A DNA stretch of 64,000 nucleotides from a bacterium (GTDB taxonomy: Bacteria > Electryoneota > JAOADG01). Location: positions 2,048,001 through 2,112,000 of the forward strand of contig OY820579.1 in assembly GCA_963681965.1 (NCBI GenBank), written 5' to 3'. How positions within the stretch are numbered: position 1 is the first letter of the stretch; every line of letters starts with the position of its first letter. Shown piece after piece: positions 4,528 to 12,614 of this stretch. The position numbers and the translations under genes are program-made. A model generated the notes under the pieces. That model saw nothing but the letters and a program-made list of their open reading frames with translations, ran no database searches and was not told the origin of the DNA.

Positions 4528-5255
4528 CGTATCGCCCCCGATCCCGCCATCACTTCGGCGATCGATAGAAATCCCAGATCAATCTTGCGTTGTTCGGCAC
4601 GCGTTTTCATGTGCATCAAGCACGAAACGTCGCCGGCAACAATCGCATCGACACCTTTATCCACTGCTTGTTGTAATTTCGCATCTGCCATCGATACCGA
4701 TATCTCCGGATACTTGATCGAGAAAGTGCCGCCAAACCCGCAACAGGCACTCCGGTCTTCAGTCGGAACAACCGTCAGTCCTGAAATACCGGTTAAAATA
4801 TGTTCGGCATAATCGCTGACTTTTAATTCACGGAGTCCGTGACACGAGCGGTGCAGCAAAATCTTGCCCGAGCGTGATTGCAATACTTTCGGGTTGCCGA
4901 GTTTCTCGCACCAGAATTGCGTGAATTCGAATGTTCGCTTCCGAAGATTTTCCCAACGCGATCGATCAAGATCGGAGATCGGTAATGTCTCGAAATGATT
5001 GACGATCATCGATCCGCATGAACCCGAGGGAATGACAACTGGAAGATTGTCCTCAGATAGGATTGCCAGAAGATGTGTTGCGATCTTGGCAGATTCGGTA
5101 TGATAACCTGAATTGAATGCCGGTTGACCACAACAAGTCGCGCGTTGATCGAATCGCACGATGCATCCGGCACGCTCTAGCAAATCGACACAAGCCCAAC
5201 CCGCTTCCGGAAAGAGCAAATCGATGAAACATGGGATGAAGAGTTTTACTTCCAT
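4524..5255 (-). CDS. lutA: Lactate utilization protein A (CCG-domain Fe-S protein)
   Basis: LFIPCFID, CCGQPAFNSG, PSGSC, CCGFGGTFS, DVSCLMH; start moved to MEVKLF at 5255. Confidence 0.92.
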   Translation of the reverse strand: MEVKLFIPCFIDLLFPEAGWACVDLLERAGCIVRFDQRATCCGQPAFNSGYHTESAKIATHLLAILSEDNLPVVIPSGSCGSMIVNHFETLPISDLDRSRWENLRKRTFEFTQFWCEKLGNPKVLQSRSGKILLHRSCHGLRELKVSDYAEHILTGISGLTVVPTEDRSACCGFGGTFSIKYPEISVSMADAKLQQAVDKGVDAIVAGDVSCLMHMKTRAEQRKIDLGFLSIAEVMAGSGAIR

Positions 5256-5275
5256 TGAGCAAATCCAAATTATTC

Positions 5276-5303
5276 GAAAGGGGCGTTCTGCGCCCCTTTC
5301 TTT
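5276..5303. terminator. Rho-independent terminator-like hairpin between the NYN-domain gene and lutA
   Basis: GAAAGGGGCG-ttctg-CGCCCCTTTC followed by TTT. Confidence 0.6.
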
Positions 5304-5312
5304 ATTCATCAA

Positions 5313-8300
5313 TTAGCCGATTATTGGTTCAATAAATTGAAAATCGCTTCCGACTGCCGCACGCAATGCCAGCGATGCGCTTCCGTTTACCGCCAACACC
5401 CGTACTCGTTTACCCTGTGTCTTCAACGAACGTACCAGCATCGCGAAGTCGCCATCACCGGTTACCAGAATTACGGTTTCGACATTAGGATACTCGCGCA
5501 GCAGCCTGCTGCTTTCTAGATAAATCATAAAGTCGGCGCTATTTTCCTTCGTTCCTTCCGGCAGTAATGTATAGAATCCAGCTTGTTGGTACGGTCGCAT
5601 GTGACTAATGAACGGTTCGGCATCCCAATTGGCAATCGCAATCGGATAAAACAGAATCCGATGATCTTTTCGAACCCAATTGAGAATCTGATCGGCGATA
5701 CCACCAACACGAATACCATCCCGATCATTCCAAGTTCGACCGGCGCGAAGTGCCTCGTCCTTCAATCCCAGAAAGAGATTTTCATGGTCGATTAAGATAA
5801 CTGTTGTCGATTTGTTGCGGTCTTCGGCTGTCGTTCCGAGTAGGTTGGCACCGTAAGCGAGTTTCGGTTGATACAACGGTGTAACGACTCGGATCTCGTT
5901 ATTCTTACCGGAGACCAATCCGATTTCTCGCAGATACATCAGATCGGGATCGTTGTCGAGTATTCGCGAGCCTTGCGAAATCGAATCGAGAATCGTGCGC
6001 GCCGGTTGTTGCGAAGGCATTTGTAAATCTGCCCACCGCCGAAATAGAATCGTCGATGAAGCGACCCAATTACCCGCAGTAATCAAATTCGATGCGAGAA
6101 TTCGTTGTTGCTGGACGTTGTTGACATCCTTGATTGCTTCCTGTAACAAGGCAACGAACAGTTCGTACACGCCACCACACAGTGTTTGAAGAGTTTGAAC
6201 CGCCTGCTCGCTGATTCCGGAGCGATCCTCAAACCAGTAATTCATCAGTGAAATCATCTGATCATCATTCAATACCGATACCCGGAGGATCTGCAGACTT
6301 CGCCAGAAAGTATGCTGCAAATGACGACGCAAATGAAACAGATCGCCCGTACAAACGATCCAGATCAGATCGGGCAATTCAATCAACTTCTGAAGTACAT
6401 CGAGGAAATTCGCTAATTGCTTACTCTGATCGGCGGTTGAAATGACCCAACCATCTGCAAAATTCGAGAGCACAATTGCTTGTTTTGCACGAGCATTGAT
6501 TGTCGAGCGCAAGCTATCGATACTTTTGGTTAAATCGGCAATCGATGACCCATTCATCGTGAATGTGGGATAGCATTTGGTGAGGATTTGTGTGGTCCAC
6601 TTGACGATTCTTTCTTCCTCGAAATTGCCATCTGGAGCAGAAACGATATGCACCTGACAGTTGACATGCTCCCCTTCTGCAGCGATTTGTCCGGCAATCT
6701 GCGCCACTCCGAATCCATTCGGTGCTTCCAGTGCAATCACTTCGCCCGGTAAATTTGTTGCAAGGTGACGACGCAACCGATTCTGAATTTCCGGATATAA
6801 TTCGAGTAGATTGACACCGCTTAGATGATCGCGCGGTGTATAGCTGCGGTCGGTTCGGTAGAGCTTCACCGACTGTTCAATGATCCCGTCCTGCGACCGT
6901 AGAATCACCGATGAGGGGAGGGTACCGTCGTGACTCATCCATCGCACTGCCAATTCTCGACGTAAAGCATCTTGTCGATTGTGCGGCAATACCGTTAATT
7001 CACCGCTCCAGTCCGAACTCGGATACACATTCCAAGTGGTATGCGTGGGATATGGTTCCGAAAATTCGAATCCGATCAATCCGGTGGAAGCATTTGGTGA
7101 AATAAATTCTTCACCTTCGTTTTCGATCGAATCGATTCGTTCGGTCGTCAATTCCTGTAGCGGAGCTGAATTCGGTTCAAATGCCAGCATCGCGCGACGA
7201 TAACGGAGAAGCTTCGCTTCCGGCATTCCCGAGTTCTGTGCACCATCGATACCCGGTTTCAATGAATCGTACAATTGGTTCCGGAAACAGAATTCCAGAT
7301 AGTAATGCCAATTATCGAGCTTCGATTTTCGCGGCGCTTTACTGTTCGATGTCGCCTCGGCTTTGCGTAAAAATGCATCCTTCGCATCGACAATATTGCC
7401 GGACATTTCATGCAATTTACCGAGGTAATGCCAATTCGCCCAGAACCACGGATATCGCTCGGTACGGGTCTTGAAATGCTCGATACCAAGTTCCAGCAAT
7501 CCTTCGGTTTGGAAGTATGCAAAATCTTTTTCGAGTCGGGCTATCGGCACTAACGCGTCGTTTGGGTCGGAGAGATCGCTCCCTTTTCTTCCGATTGCTA
7601 TCGCGGCGTTGTCGATCAGTTTACGGAGCAGATATTGACGGGTGTCTTCGTCGCTATGACGAAATGCCAGCATCACACCGACTGGTAACCATTCGATCGT
7701 TTCCAGTTGCGCGATTCGTTGCGGAATGATGTCGTACTGCTCTAACTGAAGCAATAGTCCCAGAACCGCACCGACATACGGGCGACGATGTAAATTCCGG
7801 TCAAACAATTCTTGCGAACAGAGTAAGTCGGATGCTTCTTGTAATCGTTTTGTGCGAACGTAGATTCCAGCCAGATTGGTGATGGTGGCAAAGTCCTGAC
7901 GGCGTGCCGTAATGATTTGTTGCAACAGTCGTTCAGCTGAGCTGTAGTCGCCGGTTAATATCAATGAGTAGGCATACCACTCTTTTACACCCAAATCGCC
8001 GGGAGCTAAATCAAAAGTAGCGCGAAACATATCGACCGATTTACCGAGTGAATCTTCATCGAATAAACTCTGTTGAGCATCACGGAACATTTCGATTGCT
8101 TCGCGATCTCCTTCGCGCAACGTCTTCAGCGGACGCCACCACTCCAACCACCGTTCCAGCGAGTTGATTAGTCGCGATTGCAGTTGATCCGATACTTCAC
8201 CGATCGTGTTGAAAACCGTATCGTCAGGAACATTCAACGTCCAGTCGGCAATCACTGCCGATACTTCCGGTTCAAATAAATCGATCCACTCTGCTTCCAC

Positions 8301-8984
8301 TTCGCCGGTGGCGATTCGGGTTGCCACTTCGCCGGCAAGAAAATCGCGAGCATTCTGTCGAAACGCTTGTTTGGCTGGGTGATTCGGATGTGCAAAGGTG
8401 TAGTTCCAGCCAAAGCGGATATTCTTCCGCAACATCTGACGGCGACCATCATCGTCTACTTGCGATTGCCAATGTCGATCCCAAATCCGCCACACCACAT
8501 CGTCGGTCAACCGATTCAAATCAATCCCATTTGGCAACCGATCGAATGATGCCTGAACGCCAAGCAATCGCCGAACGCGTTGCCGGACCCGGCTGCGCAA
8601 TCGGTCGAGATCGTCCCAGCGCGGTAGCGACGATCCCGCTAATAGTGCCAGTTTCAATGCGCCCAGCGCGCGTTCGCGCCAATCCACCGATGTGGCTAAT
8701 TGGTAAGATAGAAATGCTAATTTCTCGCACTGTTCCCAATAACTCTCTTCATACAATCCGGTGGCAAGACGATATGCCAAACCGGTTACATCGGAAATCA
8801 CCGAGTCGCGATGATATTCCAATGGTCGTTGACGCCAGCCCAGTACTGAATTGGTCGTAGCAGTCAACAAGTCGCGCATTTGTTCTTTTTCGTCGCCAGA
8901 AATTAGGTTCCAGGATTGAGCAGAAGTTTCGATAATGCTGTCAATCAAATCGTTTATTGGCGGTGTCTGCTGTTCATAGATCAT
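5313..8984 (-). CDS. 1223-aa protein: helical/TPR region, degenerate STAND-like P-loop domain, winged-helix-like segment, C-terminal NYN (LabA/DUF88, PIN-fold) nuclease domain
   Basis: C-terminal ILIDHEN...KENSAD...LVTGDGDFAMLVRSLKTQGKRVRVL matches NYN. TPR-like helices (WYAYSLILTGDYSSAERLLQQII, WHYLGKLHEMSGNIVDAKDAF). VIALEAPNGFGVAQ resembles a Walker A lacking GKT. GGAG SD upstream. Confidence 0.75.
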   Translation of the reverse strand: MIYEQQTPPINDLIDSIIETSAQSWNLISGDEKEQMRDLLTATTNSVLGWRQRPLEYHRDSVISDVTGLAYRLATGLYEESYWEQCEKLAFLSYQLATSVDWRERALGALKLALLAGSSLPRWDDLDRLRSRVRQRVRRLLGVQASFDRLPNGIDLNRLTDDVVWRIWDRHWQSQVDDDGRRQMLRKNIRFGWNYTFAHPNHPAKQAFRQNARDFLAGEVATRIATGEVEAEWIDLFEPEVSAVIADWTLNVPDDTVFNTIGEVSDQLQSRLINSLERWLEWWRPLKTLREGDREAIEMFRDAQQSLFDEDSLGKSVDMFRATFDLAPGDLGVKEWYAYSLILTGDYSSAERLLQQIITARRQDFATITNLAGIYVRTKRLQEASDLLCSQELFDRNLHRRPYVGAVLGLLLQLEQYDIIPQRIAQLETIEWLPVGVMLAFRHSDEDTRQYLLRKLIDNAAIAIGRKGSDLSDPNDALVPIARLEKDFAYFQTEGLLELGIEHFKTRTERYPWFWANWHYLGKLHEMSGNIVDAKDAFLRKAEATSNSKAPRKSKLDNWHYYLEFCFRNQLYDSLKPGIDGAQNSGMPEAKLLRYRRAMLAFEPNSAPLQELTTERIDSIENEGEEFISPNASTGLIGFEFSEPYPTHTTWNVYPSSDWSGELTVLPHNRQDALRRELAVRWMSHDGTLPSSVILRSQDGIIEQSVKLYRTDRSYTPRDHLSGVNLLELYPEIQNRLRRHLATNLPGEVIALEAPNGFGVAQIAGQIAAEGEHVNCQVHIVSAPDGNFEEERIVKWTTQILTKCYPTFTMNGSSIADLTKSIDSLRSTINARAKQAIVLSNFADGWVISTADQSKQLANFLDVLQKLIELPDLIWIVCTGDLFHLRRHLQHTFWRSLQILRVSVLNDDQMISLMNYWFEDRSGISEQAVQTLQTLCGGVYELFVALLQEAIKDVNNVQQQRILASNLITAGNWVASSTILFRRWADLQMPSQQPARTILDSISQGSRILDNDPDLMYLREIGLVSGKNNEIRVVTPLYQPKLAYGANLLGTTAEDRNKSTTVILIDHENLFLGLKDEALRAGRTWNDRDGIRVGGIADQILNWVRKDHRILFYPIAIANWDAEPFISHMRPYQQAGFYTLLPEGTKENSADFMIYLESSRLLREYPNVETVILVTGDGDFAMLVRSLKTQGKRVRVLAVNGSASLALRAAVGSDFQFIEPIIG

Positions 8985-9006
8985 ATCTCGCTCCGGTAAA
9001 TCGTCA

Positions 9007-10188
9007 TTATTCCAGCCATCCGTAATCTCGCAAAACCAATTTTGTGGCTTTTGGTAACGGAATTTGCTTGATTTTATTTCGATCGATCCAACTTATTTTT
9101 TCCGCCGAATGGGGGGTGAGAGTACCACCGGCAGTTTTGACTACAAACGGGTGAAGTCGAATTCGAAAATGCGTAAAGGCATGACGAATCGGTTTCAACC
9201 CTTTTTCTACGATTACATCAAGTCCGGTTTCCTCGCGGTACTCGCGTACCACAGCCAATTCCGGGGTTTCATCTGCTTCCAATTTGCCTCCCGGTAGTTC
9301 CCACAAACCACCCAGGAAGCCATCTTTTTTCCGCAATCCCATCAGAATGCGGTCCTGCTCAACTAAAATTCCAATTGCAATATCGATTAATGGTGCATCC
9401 ACCTTTCGTCGTGGTGGTGGAAACTCGTCAACTTTTTTGTTCTCATGCGCTTTGCATGTACCCATCAAAGGACATTGCTCGCAATTCGGAACACCCGGTA
9501 AACAAACCGTTGCACCCAGTTCCATCAGCGCTTCTACCGCATCCGGTGTCGATTCCGGATCCAGTAACGATTGCAAGATCATGCGATAACTTGCCGGTGC
9601 ATTGCGATCAGTGTACGATACCGGAACCATCAACCAACGCGATACTACCCGTGCGATGTTGCCATCGACTGCAATCGCCGGCTTCCGATATGCAAATGCG
9701 ACGATCGCTGCCGCAGTATAATCGCCGATTCCCGCCAAGTGTTTTAAATCATTCTCGTCTTGCGGGAAAACACCCTGATACTCGGTTACAATCTGCCGTG
9801 CGGTTTGGTGAATCATCCGTGCCCGTGAATAATATCCCAAACCTTCCCAAGTCTTTAGCACTTCTTCCAATTCGGCATTCGCTAACTTTTCGACATCGGG
9901 AAACCGTTGCATCCATCGTTCGAAAAAAGGAATGACCGTACTTACCCGTGTTTGTTGCAGCATAATTTCGCTGATCCAAACCCGGTACGGTGTTCGATTC
10001 TTGCGCCACGGCATCGCCCGAGCGAATGTTCGAAACCAGGGAATCAATTCTGTCTGAATTGCCGTTCGATAATGCGAAAGATCCTGTGGCAGCACATCGA
10101 TCGAAGTAGTTTCTTTTACCGACAGATCGATTTTACTGCGTTGACTTCGACTTGATTGCTGCTTTATTCCAACCGGTTTTCGATACAT
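9007..10188 (-). CDS. mutY: A/G-specific adenine glycosylase MutY with C-terminal Nudix domain
   Basis: PYRVWISEIMLQQT, WEGLGYYSRAR, GIGDYTA, VDGNIARV, 4Fe-4S motif CLPGVPNCEQCPLMGTC; start uncertain. Confidence 0.95.
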   Translation of the reverse strand: MYRKPVGIKQQSSRSQRSKIDLSVKETTSIDVLPQDLSHYRTAIQTELIPWFRTFARAMPWRKNRTPYRVWISEIMLQQTRVSTVIPFFERWMQRFPDVEKLANAELEEVLKTWEGLGYYSRARMIHQTARQIVTEYQGVFPQDENDLKHLAGIGDYTAAAIVAFAYRKPAIAVDGNIARVVSRWLMVPVSYTDRNAPASYRMILQSLLDPESTPDAVEALMELGATVCLPGVPNCEQCPLMGTCKAHENKKVDEFPPPRRKVDAPLIDIAIGILVEQDRILMGLRKKDGFLGGLWELPGGKLEADETPELAVVREYREETGLDVIVEKGLKPIRHAFTHFRIRLHPFVVKTAGGTLTPHSAEKISWIDRNKIKQIPLPKATKLVLRDYGWLE

Positions 10189-10435
10189 GAATATCTTGTG
10201 AATAGAGTAAATCTGTCCGATACGGGAATACACAAAAAACCCGTCATCGAAACAATTCGATCGGTTCGAATGCATCATGTAAGTAGGAACGAATCGCCAT
10301 TCCCAAACGGGAATGATTTTCGCGGAAGGTATGATTGGAAACCTGAGAACGATTGATTTTACTCTTGGGTTTCCATTATATGATATTCAGTCGATTTCGT
10401 GACTTACAAAAAAAGAATTTGTTGAGTTGAATTAA

Positions 10436-11566
10436 TTAACTTCCCGTAGCAATTGTCAACATTCGATCTAGAGCAACTTTAGACATTTGTTTGACACTAT
10501 CGCTAACTCGAATTTGATTGGTAATCTTTCCTTGAACAAGACCTTCCAATATCTCTGCCAAATCGATCGGATCGATCCGGGTCATGGTTGCGCAATTACA
10601 TGTTGTAAACGCAAGATTGGAAATTTTCAAACAGTCGCGAAATCGTTTTTGTAACCTTCCTACCAAATGATATTCTGTACCGATCGCCCACAGCGAGCCT
10701 GCTTCATTTTCGGCAGCCCGCTCGATCATCTTGATAATATAATCTGTCGAACCTGCAAAATCCGATTGTTGAACCACCTCATATCGACATTCGGGGTGGA
10801 CAATTACGTTAATATTCGGGTAATTCGTTCGAAAATAGTCAATATGTGCCGGGATAAAACGTTGATGAACGGAACAATATCCCCGCCAAAGTACGATGGG
10901 TGCCCGGTCAATTGCCCCGTTTTTCACACCACCATTCGGTTGTAATGGATCCCAAACCACCATGTTTTCCAGTGGAACACCAAGTTTATACGCCGTATTT
11001 CGACCTAAATGCTCATCGGGTATAAATAAAATGCGACGACGTTGCTGCCACGCCCATTTCAGCGCTGCTTGGGCATTCGACGATGTGCAGACTGCTCCGC
11101 CATGTTCACCGCAAAATGCTTTGATTTCGGCAGAGGAATTCATGTAAGTCAAGGGTAACGGTTCTTCGCCAGTTACTTCGGTGATATACCGGTAAGCGCG
11201 TTTCACTTGGCTGAAATTCGCCATGTCTGCCATTGAACAGCCCGCAGACAAGTCAGGGAGGATAACCGCTTGATGAGAATCGGTCAGAATATCGGCAGTC
11301 TCAGCCATGAAATGAACACCGCAAAACACCACAAATTCAGCGTCGCGTTCGTTTGCAGCATGCACCGAGAGTCCATAGGAATCGCCGGTTCGATCGGCAA
11401 ATGCGATTACTTCGTCGCGCTGGTAATGGTGTCCAAGGATCAGGACTCGCTTTCCCAGCTTCGCTTTAGCAGTAGCAATGCGATCCAATACACTGGGATC
11501 CGTATCGATTGAATCGGTCGGGGTCCAAATATCCGCGTTTACTTCTGTGTCTGTTACGGTCGACAT
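10436..11566 (-). CDS. nadA: Quinolinate synthase A
   Basis: ILGHHYQRDEV, FCGVHFMAETA, AGCSMADMA, CTSSNA, GYCSVHQRF, HPEC, CNCATM. Confidence 0.95.
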   Translation of the reverse strand: MSTVTDTEVNADIWTPTDSIDTDPSVLDRIATAKAKLGKRVLILGHHYQRDEVIAFADRTGDSYGLSVHAANERDAEFVVFCGVHFMAETADILTDSHQAVILPDLSAGCSMADMANFSQVKRAYRYITEVTGEEPLPLTYMNSSAEIKAFCGEHGGAVCTSSNAQAALKWAWQQRRRILFIPDEHLGRNTAYKLGVPLENMVVWDPLQPNGGVKNGAIDRAPIVLWRGYCSVHQRFIPAHIDYFRTNYPNINVIVHPECRYEVVQQSDFAGSTDYIIKMIERAAENEAGSLWAIGTEYHLVGRLQKRFRDCLKISNLAFTTCNCATMTRIDPIDLAEILEGLVQGKITNQIRVSDSVKQMSKVALDRMLTIATGS

Positions 11567-11660: not shown

Positions 11661-12614
11661 TTATCGATTTTTTTGGCTTCGGGGATGGTGTGTTTGCACA
11701 ATTGTATTCAGATAATCACGGTTGAGATGCGTATAAATCACTGTCGTGTCGATCGAAACATGACCAAGCAGTTCCTGAATCGAGCGTAAATCGACCCCAT
11801 TGGAAAGCAGGTGAGTAGCGAACGAGTGCCGAAACGTATGCAGTGAAGCACGTCCTTTCGGAAGTACTTCGAGTATGTATGCCATACAGATTTTTGTGAT
11901 TCCGTCGCGTGTCAGCTTACAACCACGGTGACTCAAAAATACCCCGATATTGGGTGCTAATTGACGGCTGCGAAGCGATTTCCGTTTTTCCCACTGCCCG
12001 GCAAATTCCGGTCGACCCTCTTGGAGCCAATTCTTCATCCAATGGGCTGCTTCACCCACCAAGGGCACCATCCGTTCTTTCGATCCTTTGCCGAAGTATA
12101 AAACATACCCTTCGTCGAGAAACACCCGATTGATATCCAATTTGACCAGATCGCTTACGCGCGCACCAGTTCCGTACAATAGCTCTAACATTGCCCGGTC
12201 GCGAAGTCCGGCGGTATTCGAAACATCGGGGCGATCAAGGATTTTTCCCACTTCGACGGGCGTGAGCACTTTCGGTAACGGACGGCGATGAGTCGGAGTA
12301 GCTGCTGCTTCCGCCGGATTCCGCTTGCCCAAACGCATCCGCAGTTGCCAGTTGTAGAACGTTCGTAGTGCCGAAAGACGCCGTTGAATCGTACTTCGCT
12401 CTAGCGGGAGAACAGCTTCGGTTCCCGCTTGCCATTCAAGTAAGATCGCTTCGATTTGTTCGGTTGAGATAGTATCGATCGAGAAATTAGTCGCAGTTAT
12501 CGCCTTCGCCCACGCGGTGAGATCGCTTTCGTATGCCGATACGGTTGCAGCACTTGCCCCCTCAATTAAAAGGGCTTCGGTAAAGTCGTGAAAACACTGT
12601 TCAGTGTAATTCAT
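11661..12614 (-). CDS. xerD: Tyrosine recombinase XerD-like
   Basis: LRDRAMLELLYGTGARVS, GKGSKERMVP, HTFRHSFATHLL, QELLGH...TTVIYTH, C-terminal HPR. Confidence 0.85.
   Translation of the reverse strand: MNYTEQCFHDFTEALLIEGASAATVSAYESDLTAWAKAITATNFSIDTISTEQIEAILLEWQAGTEAVLPLERSTIQRRLSALRTFYNWQLRMRLGKRNPAEAAATPTHRRPLPKVLTPVEVGKILDRPDVSNTAGLRDRAMLELLYGTGARVSDLVKLDINRVFLDEGYVLYFGKGSKERMVPLVGEAAHWMKNWLQEGRPEFAGQWEKRKSLRSRQLAPNIGVFLSHRGCKLTRDGITKICMAYILEVLPKGRASLHTFRHSFATHLLSNGVDLRSIQELLGHVSIDTTVIYTHLNRDYLNTIVQTHHPRSQKNR

Follow-up and report, generated by a model that had tools for sequence, protein, structure and literature searches.

STAND/NLR-type proteins are thought to depend on switching driven by nucleoside triphosphates (NTPs). 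What becomes of such a protein when its switch has lost the motifs for NTP binding and hydrolysis? The question is raised by a gene in a 64,000-nucleotide stretch of bacterial DNA (GTDB lineage Bacteria; Electryoneota; JAOADG01) that spans positions 2,048,001 to 2,112,000 of contig OY820579.1 in assembly GCA_963681965.1 and is referred to here as the window. The gene is an intact open reading frame (ORF) at positions 5313..8984 of the minus strand, with an ATG start, 0 internal stops and a length of 1,223 codons plus the stop; its product, the protein under study, is called X (P0001) and its genome G000. We find that X is a degenerate variant within an uncharacterised family of the NLR-like sensor-nuclease kind, and that it is a real, well-defined feature. 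We are highly confident of the architectural and evolutionary account given below, which covers the domain order and folds of X, the loss of its ATPase motifs, the retention of its NYN acidic cluster, and its vertical inheritance under purifying selection. Positions are those of the window, and the domains, signals and genes given with coordinates lie on its minus strand.

Domain organization and folds of X

A first-pass annotation, made from the sequence alone, had proposed that X combines TPR repeats, an inactive STAND-like module, a winged helix and an NYN domain. This architecture was borne out by predicted folds, by profile-profile homology and by language-model neighbors. We obtained two AlphaFold2 models of X (aa 1-640 and aa 620-1223), both built on a six-sequence alignment, and structural matches were re-compared with VIA across 980 chains ranked by Foldseek. 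The results support the order TPR, beta domain, STAND/AAA+-type core, lid, winged helix and NYN.

The N-terminal helical region (aa 1-300; 8085..8984) has no family assignment. It is all-helical in the model, and a query of the ESM Atlas with these residues gave no usable lead (best score 0.88). Homology to the wider family described below begins at about residue 125, where the hhalign alignment starts. The TPR solenoid that follows (aa 301-605; 7170..8084) is the most conserved part of the protein and contains a Pfam TPR_19 match at aa 343-388 (E 2.5e-7, 31.3 bits against a cut-off of 25). TPR-like helices had been placed at residues 300-600; the assignment to TPR holds, by TPR_19 and by the helical model, but the extent does not. 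The solenoid is about twice as long as claimed, since the model of aa 1-640 (predicted local distance difference test score, pLDDT, 79.9) is all-helical up to residue 602, forming a solenoid of about 600 residues. For this N-terminal half, Foldseek returned only generic TPR superhelices (APC/C Cut9, OGT and Naa15; TM-score at most 0.2).

The original list of domains had overlooked a beta domain between the solenoid and the core (aa 626-715; 6840..7109). DSSP analysis of the model predicts seven strands across residues ~622-710, in blocks with pLDDT of about 60-78. A 23-residue stretch of this domain, around WMSHDGTLPSSVILRSQDG, matches the repeat unit of P0009, a 1,858-residue Ig-like repeat protein, 18 times. 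This match is weak and serves as a lead only; the recurrence of the stretch in an Ig-like repeat protein hints that the beta domain may be an Ig-like sandwich. P0009 had emerged from a HMMER search of 1.84 billion representatives with a four-sequence profile of the central region (aa 620-1055), in which the family itself (2 representatives) was the only other match. Its 18 matches all came from the one 23-residue stretch, and we judged this to be repeat inflation and rejected P0009 as a homolog of the central region. Against PDB sequences, the central-region profile gave three spurious protein A matches only.

The core (aa 716-905; 6270..6839) is predicted to be an AAA+/STAND-type alpha/beta domain with dead motifs, that is, a pseudo-NTPase. 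The model of aa 620-1223 has an overall pLDDT of 66.9; within it, residues ~719-905 form five parallel strands with flanking helices (an ASCE fold), mostly in blocks with pLDDT of 73-90. Fold comparison of the central region, which had been suggested as a check on the proposed architecture, returned an AAA+/STAND-type core with VIA Z scores of 11.3-13.1. The matches include chain B of an origin recognition complex (ORC) structure (7jk5_B; Z 13.1, root-mean-square deviation (rmsd) 3.4, 161 residues aligned), archaeal Cdc6/Orc1 (2qby_B; Z 12.6, rmsd 3.7, 186 aligned), the AAA+-like domain of Sir3 (3te6_A; Z 11.8, rmsd 3.8, 156 aligned) and Avs3 (8dgc_A; Z 11.3, rmsd 3.9, 186 aligned), as well as MuB, TnsC and NSF-D2, with alignments spanning 150-190 residues. 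The third-ranked Foldseek match was 2qen, an archaeal Walker-type ATPase (E 1.1e-7), and the plant NLR RPP1 was matched as well (7dfv_A; E 2.0e-6). ESM Atlas neighbors of aa 626-1050 fell into nSTAND1, nSTAND2, AAA_35 and ATPase_2 clusters (scores 0.93-0.95; a lead only). The core thus resembles the ATPase_2 (PF01637), nSTAND1/2 and AAA_35 NTPases by Foldseek and ESM Atlas, whereas all of the corresponding sequence matches lie below Pfam thresholds; in X there is only a weak C-terminal AAA_35 match, at aa 923-1039 (E 0.047). The modeled fold is supported as fitting the STAND and the ORC/Cdc6-type AAA+ clades alike, and the data do not separate the two.

Beyond the core lies a helical lid (aa 906-990; 6015..6269), which carries GGVY where relatives have GGYP and has pLDDT below 50 over residues ~904-984. 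The winged-helix-like segment (aa 991-1045; 5850..6014) consists, by DSSP of the model, of two helices and a beta hairpin. Such a unit, first suggested from the sequence, is present in the model at moderate confidence (pLDDT blocks of 55-73 over residues ~995-1033); a few of the ORC/Cdc6 alignments reach into it with high rmsd, and the weak AAA_35 match also covers it.

The C-terminal domain (aa 1056-1223; 5316..5819) is an NYN nuclease domain of LabA/MARF1 type. Pfam PF01936 matches at aa 1061-1212 with 45 bits (cut-off 24.2; E 2e-11). The PIN-like fold aligns with the NYN structures 2qip, 6fdl and 5yaa at Z 17.1-17.3: Z is 17.3 for 2qip (rmsd 2.8 over 150 residues) and 17.2 for 6fdl_B, the NYN domain of MARF1 (rmsd 2.4 over 146 residues); phmmer likewise matched 2qip_A. 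NCBIfam gave nothing above its cut-offs for X. The acidic residues that had been read from the sequence are in place, as D1066 (IDHEN), D1151 (SAD) and D1177/D1179 (GDGD). Known LabA/MARF1-type NYN domains occur either on their own or joined to RNA-binding domains such as LOTUS/OST-HTH, and a fusion of NYN to a TPR-STAND module was not found in the literature searched. The active site of MARF1 is given as D358, D426 and D452 in bioRxiv 10.1101/2024.01.29.577857.

A small degenerate group and its relatives with intact motifs

A search of 5.8 billion proteins returned five full-length homologs of X, at 80, 62, 61, 45 and 42 % identity. All four acidic NYN positions are kept in 5 of these 6 proteins and IDHEN is invariant; the exception is P0005, which has TGKQEY in place of TGDGDF and therefore K and E at the GDGD positions. 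The same search gave two further weak matches of ~1,625 residues, and BLASTP showed both to be collinear relatives. The relative P0008 carries the motifs GIRRVGKTS, LVMIDEFQ, TGGYPWLV, FIDHEN, NAVDF and TGDGD. Searching with its C-terminal 625 residues produced 74 matches, 65 of them at E <=6e-64 and with lengths of ~960-2,140 residues; these correspond to ~65 database clusters at 90 % identity, and some come from short contigs and are probably cut. The sources include Thermoanaerobaculia, Bryobacteraceae, Pyrinomonadaceae, Calditrichota, Anaerolineales, Desulfosarcina variabilis (Dvar_51710, here P0067) and metagenomes. Members of the family with intact motifs (P0007-P0072; loci L011-L021) occur here and there in Acidobacteriota, Bacteroidota, Desulfobacterota, Deferribacteres, Aminicenantes and Chloroflexota. 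In the 13 intact relatives that were aligned (alignment A5), D-G-I-R-R-x-G-K, DEFQ, the G-Y-P of TGGYP, DHEN, GDxD and the Asp of NAVDF are all invariant (13/13). Their ATPase region has sub-threshold Pfam matches to ATPase_2, AAA_16, AAA_14 and AAA_22.

Comparison of full-length profiles with hhalign joined the two groups at 99.84 % probability (E 2e-30) over 1,040 columns, aligning Q125-1214 of X with residues 298-1613 of P0008. The full-length profiles were needed for this result; alignment A4 against the single sequence of P0008 reached 2 % probability only. The intact relatives share with X the same domain order and the same NYN motifs. They differ in being 1,400-1,800 residues long, with an extra N-terminus of ~300 residues and a central helical insert, both absent from X, and in keeping the Walker A motif GIRRVGKTS, the Walker B motif DEFQ and GGYP, all three of which X lacks. 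The literature searched contained no description of the intact family or of any bacterial TPR-STAND-NYN protein (supplementary tables of the papers were outside this search). The TPR-beta-ATPase-winged-helix-NYN family is apparently undescribed, and X appears to be its degenerate, long-branch offshoot.

Loss of the NTPase motifs

To compare motifs, we aligned the C-terminal 560 residues of the 6 degenerate and 9 intact sequences with MAFFT L-INS-i. The erosion of all three ATPase motifs that had been noted in X extends to every member of its group. At Walker A, EAPxGFG[VA][ANED] in 6/6 stands against DGIRR[VA]GK[TS] in 9/9, and the Lys and Ser/Thr are gone. At Walker B, hhhh[STQ][NGKS]FA (6/6) replaces hhhhDEFQ (9/9), with loss of the Asp-Glu pair, and at the GxP position GG[VL][YA] (6/6) replaces [GA]GYP (9/9; GGYP in 8/9).

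In X, the Walker A remnant EAPNGFGVA (aa 753-761; 6702..6728) has kept its glycines, with Lys changed to Val and Thr to Ala. The model places it between a strand (749-753) and a helix (760-773), and E753, A754, P755, G757, F758 and G759 are invariant in 6/6 members. In the Walker B remnant AIVLSNFAD (aa 835-843; 6456..6482), which includes the strand 835-840, Asp-Glu has become Ser-Asn; both hhalign and MAFFT align this segment with LVMIDEFQE. The Walker A stretch was left unaligned by hhalign, which placed a gap there, and its mapping therefore relies on MAFFT L-INS-i and on the strand-loop-helix topology. Judged from these motifs, X is a pseudo-NTPase that derives from a family whose ATPase works. 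Our search for literature on degenerate or pseudo-ATPase STAND proteins found nothing relevant.

Inheritance, synteny and selection

We constructed a quick maximum likelihood tree from the last 640 residues of 26 sequences; its outgroup branches are long and its nodes weak. The six degenerate proteins form one clade (Shimodaira-Hasegawa-like approximate likelihood ratio test, 100) on a stem of 5.92 changes per column, against 0.16-1.09 for the crown branches. The tree fits a position of this clade either inside or beside the intact family.

The X branch is confined to one small, uncultured lineage among the genomes searched. With full-length X as query, 24 of 41 related genomes were matched, but outside G000-G003 the match was limited to the NYN domain. 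A query of aa 1-640 gave matches in 4 of 79 genomes of the phylum, which are 4/4 of the family designated f1 and 0/75 of the others; f1 stands alone at order and class level in this collection, since no listed genome is labeled with the same order or class. G000, G002 and G003 all retain the block nadA-mutY-X-(gap fitting lutA)-lutB-lutC-E1 dehydrogenase, and G001 retains nadA-mutY-X as far as the end of its contig. X overlaps the end of mutY in G002 and follows it closely in G001 and G003. The other neighbors are housekeeping genes, encoding a XerC/D-like recombinase, Rpe, RsmB, LutABC and the E1 dehydrogenase, and no mobile or defence genes were found among the neighbors examined.

Across three comparisons, X is 79, 61 and 42 % identical, NadA 82, 75 and 69 %, and MutY 60, 54 and 46 %; in the second and third of these LutB is 71 and 56 % and LutC 40 and 33 % identical. 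By these sequence identities, the divergence of X is within the range of its neighbors MutY and LutC. Change is unevenly spread along the protein. TPR identity to the five homologs is 90, 73, 71, 56 and 53 %. At the deepest split, identity is 52 % in the N-terminal helices, 53 % in the TPR array, 39 % in the beta domain, 29 % in the dead core, 32 % in the lid, 35 % in the winged helix and 38 % in NYN. Between G000 and G001, nonsynonymous divergence (dN) ranges from 0.073 in the TPR array to 0.263 in the dead core; synonymous divergence is saturated, which precludes a ratio of the two for most domains. Change came in a burst and then gave way to constraint, which is strongest in the putative sensor; this does not look like the record of a mobile defence gene in an arms race. 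X is shown to be single-copy, syntenic, vertically inherited and under purifying selection in one family-level lineage.

We also considered a decaying pseudogene and rejected it, given six intact ORFs of 1,220-1,232 residues at 42-80 % identity with low dN.

A predicted symmetric dimer of the dead module

Two copies of aa 716-1045 were co-folded. The interface score (ipSAE) of the predicted dimer was 0.58, against 0.00 for the best control; the mark was reached by 20/30 proteins whose solved structure is a pair of one chain and by 1/23 solved as single chains. At least 94 % of contacts are shared between runs, and the pLDDT of the partner is at least 85. The predicted interface involves residues 732-747, 773-775, 883-903, 990 and 1010-1020 and is two-fold symmetric, unlike the head-to-tail contact of AAA+ rings. 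Invariant residues are enriched in it (11/33, against 45/297 elsewhere; odds ratio 2.8, one-sided Fisher p 0.012) and include R738, R739, R886, R887, W894, Q898, P1013 and Y1017. The modeling supports self-association of the dead module as a symmetric homodimer.

ORC chain B, which we take to be Orc2, and Sir3 are among the best fold matches of this core. Orc2 and Sir3 are non-hydrolysing AAA+ modules that serve as scaffolds. They differ from X in being eukaryotic chromatin proteins without nuclease effectors, and the profile search of PDB sequences gave no sequence relationship.

Flanking signals and neighboring genes

As stated in the first-pass annotation, X begins 22 nt past the mutY stop codon (9007-9009) in G000 and has a Shine-Dalgarno-like tetramer of its own; read from the sequence, this is GGAG at 8991..8994, within the gap and 6 nt before the ATG. 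A terminator had also been proposed downstream. A strong hairpin is indeed present between the X stop and the likely lutA start (ATG at 5255), with a perfect, GC-rich 10-bp stem at 5276-5300 (-23.2 kcal/mol for the 69-nt context, z -3.6). Its identity as a terminator is less clear: on the X strand its tail is GAAUAAUUUGGAUUU, which failed the T-run rule of the terminator scan, the scan flagged the site on the plus strand alone, and the likely lutA start follows 20 nt past the hairpin. A second copy of the hairpin was not found within the 64-kb window. In G002, lutA starts 9 nt past the stop of the X ortholog, and this junction has no equivalent hairpin. X probably lies inside an operon, given this 9-nt spacing in G002, and the hairpin might act within that operon as a partial terminator or serve to stabilise the RNA. 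Rfam, searched at gathering thresholds on both strands of the whole window, gave 0 matches. Among sequencing runs listed for positions 5200-9100, five from two studies contain the DNA and none is an RNA run.

The mutY ORF as listed (9007-10278; 423 residues) has ~70 N-terminal residues that orthologs do not match, and tblastn alignments of the orthologs begin at its residues 31, 73 and 78; the true start is therefore probably further downstream. The 1-kb stretch 10001-11000, comprising the 5' end of mutY and the mutY-nadA spacer, has a GC content of 0.42, against 0.47-0.51 around it. Directly upstream of nadA lies a gene for a tyrosine recombinase of 317 residues (11661-12614) with Phage_integrase and SAM-like N-terminal domains. 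By its size and predicted domains, this enzyme is more consistent with a housekeeping recombinase of XerC/XerD type than with a prophage integrase.

Discussion

Loss of the ATPase motifs, together with retention of the gene at the same spot in 4/4 genomes, suggests that X is a defence-type protein turned to a host job. The functional reading that we prefer, with a probability of roughly 0.5, is that X is a domesticated, dimeric, TPR-gated NYN ribonuclease. The comparisons above show the evolutionary part of this history. The ancestors of X carried a functional Walker A/B ATPase, with a TPR array on its N-terminal side and an NYN nuclease on its C-terminal side. The motifs for NTP binding and hydrolysis were lost on one long stem branch, after which purifying selection maintained the protein, encoded by a syntenic gene present once per genome, in one family-level lineage. 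In the mechanism that we propose, the dead ATPase-lid-winged-helix module would no longer be an NTP-driven switch; it would instead hold two NYN domains together as a fixed scaffold for symmetric dimerisation. The conserved TPR solenoid of ~600 residues may bind a putative conserved cellular partner, either a protein or a peptide, and this partner would gate a metal-dependent NYN endoribonuclease or target it to the cell's own RNA. A role in RNA turnover or stress control, specific to this lineage, would be the most likely one, ahead of mobile antiphage defence.

Several points weigh against this reading. The dimer is a model prediction from a six-row alignment, and the lid region is poorly modeled. 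The Gly-rich P-loop remnant E753-A-P-x-G-F-G, although invariant, is not part of the interface predicted for the dimer, which leaves room for a role as a ligand-binding switch. The TGKQEY of P0005 suggests that catalysis is perhaps dispensable in some members. A defence role could persist in the X branch, since the wider family is patchy and its neighbors are variable, as would suit a conflict system. Finally, the four related genomes are few and, being kin, are not independent.

A more specific version, which we offer tentatively, is that X is a domesticated immune receptor. Here an NLR-like TPR-STAND-NYN conflict protein would have lost its NTP switch in one burst, leaving a constitutive dimer encoded by a fixed core gene in a deep, uncultured lineage; the invariant TPR array and the likewise invariant P-loop remnant would sense an endogenous protein or small phosphorylated ligand and so license NYN cleavage of the cell's own RNA.

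Against domestication stands the proposal that X is a single-gene abortive-infection or antiphage sensor of Avs- or NLR-like kind, in which the TPR array would detect a phage protein and free the NYN RNase in an NTP-independent version of such systems. We consider this unlikely, although the layout of sensor repeats, STAND-type module and nuclease effector speaks for it, as does the presence of Avs3 among the fold matches of the core. X resembles Avs and other bacterial NLR-like proteins in this tripartite plan. Avs proteins run from effector through NTPase to a C-terminal sensor, and their NTPase motifs are required; in X the order is reversed, the motifs are gone, no PADLOC match to Avs was found and the gene is a syntenic core gene. 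In the wider family, which is rare, scattered over phyla and without conserved neighbors, the survey of neighborhoods gave some encouragement. A Pfam scan of 20 neighbors found the L012 copy flanked by genes for a ParE toxin and a DUF4160 protein, with a Schlafen/AlbA_2 gene after the L019 copy, and a PADLOC scan of 10 neighbors (8 of them among those 20) gave weak matches for one, a Lon-like/TPR protein upstream in L019. For X and 5/5 tested intact-family members, in contrast, PADLOC gave no system-level match, only weak matches to the NYN domain (best E 1e-5; in X, PDLC01154 NYN at aa 1161-1221, E 1e-5). The X branch itself sits in a fixed housekeeping block in 4/4 genomes of its lineage, its surroundings lack mobile and defence genes, it diverges much as the neighboring core genes do, and its putative sensor is its most conserved part, the reverse of what an arms race would produce. 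The first-pass annotation had raised an antiphage or stress-activated role and had regarded a conserved housekeeping ortholog with no toxicity or phage phenotype as evidence to the contrary. For the X branch we found no positive support for such a sensor in PADLOC, distribution, synteny, divergence or conservation, and X answers to part of that description, as a conserved ortholog that is syntenic in 4/4 f1 genomes. The stand-alone NYN candidate HEC-09 gave no defence when tested, according to bioRxiv 10.1101/2024.01.29.577857. In other literature on NYN, the domain is the effector in animal TRADD-N proteins (PMC8195603), and NYN genes occur near type III-B CRISPR loci (bioRxiv 10.1101/270033).

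It is also quite improbable, in our view, that X is a non-catalytic scaffold, an adaptor in which NYN would bind RNA or protein without nuclease chemistry. P0005 lacks the first Asp of GDGD, P0005 and P0006 are the most divergent in NYN (38-39 % identity), and the invariant fraction is 0.37-0.42 in the TPR and N-terminal parts against 0.19 in NYN. LabA-like NYN proteins of cyanobacteria have a regulatory role of this sort. A loss of chemistry fits poorly with the four acidic positions kept in 5/6 members and the invariant IDHEN, with 13/13 intact relatives that keep DHEN, the Asp of NAVDF and GDxD, and with the strong fold match to the active MARF1 NYN domain (Z 17.2). Least probable is a DNA-repair accessory nuclease that would work with MutY to cut flaps or abasic-site intermediates after adenine excision: X adjoins mutY in all four genomes (a 22-nt gap in G000, an overlap in G002) and the PIN-like superfamily includes 5' flap nucleases, but this adjacency is not specific, because synteny extends over the entire block, in which nadA and lutABC are unrelated genes. 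The intact relatives are not beside mutY in any of the 6 loci with scanned neighbors, and the best structural matches are RNase-type NYN domains.

X is a natural case of a whole sensor-module-effector protein that is under purifying selection after the loss of every NTPase motif. Because sister proteins with intact motifs are at hand, the pair could cleanly reveal whether the NTPase provides switching or mere assembly. X also draws attention to a family, uncharacterised and missing from current catalogues of defence systems, in which a TPR-STAND protein ends in a C-terminal NYN RNase, and it is a candidate example of a conflict-type protein turned into a lineage-specific core gene. If X is indeed a domesticated immune receptor, it would be a bacterial parallel to the eukaryotic recruitment of NLR/AAA+ modules as ATP-independent scaffolds.

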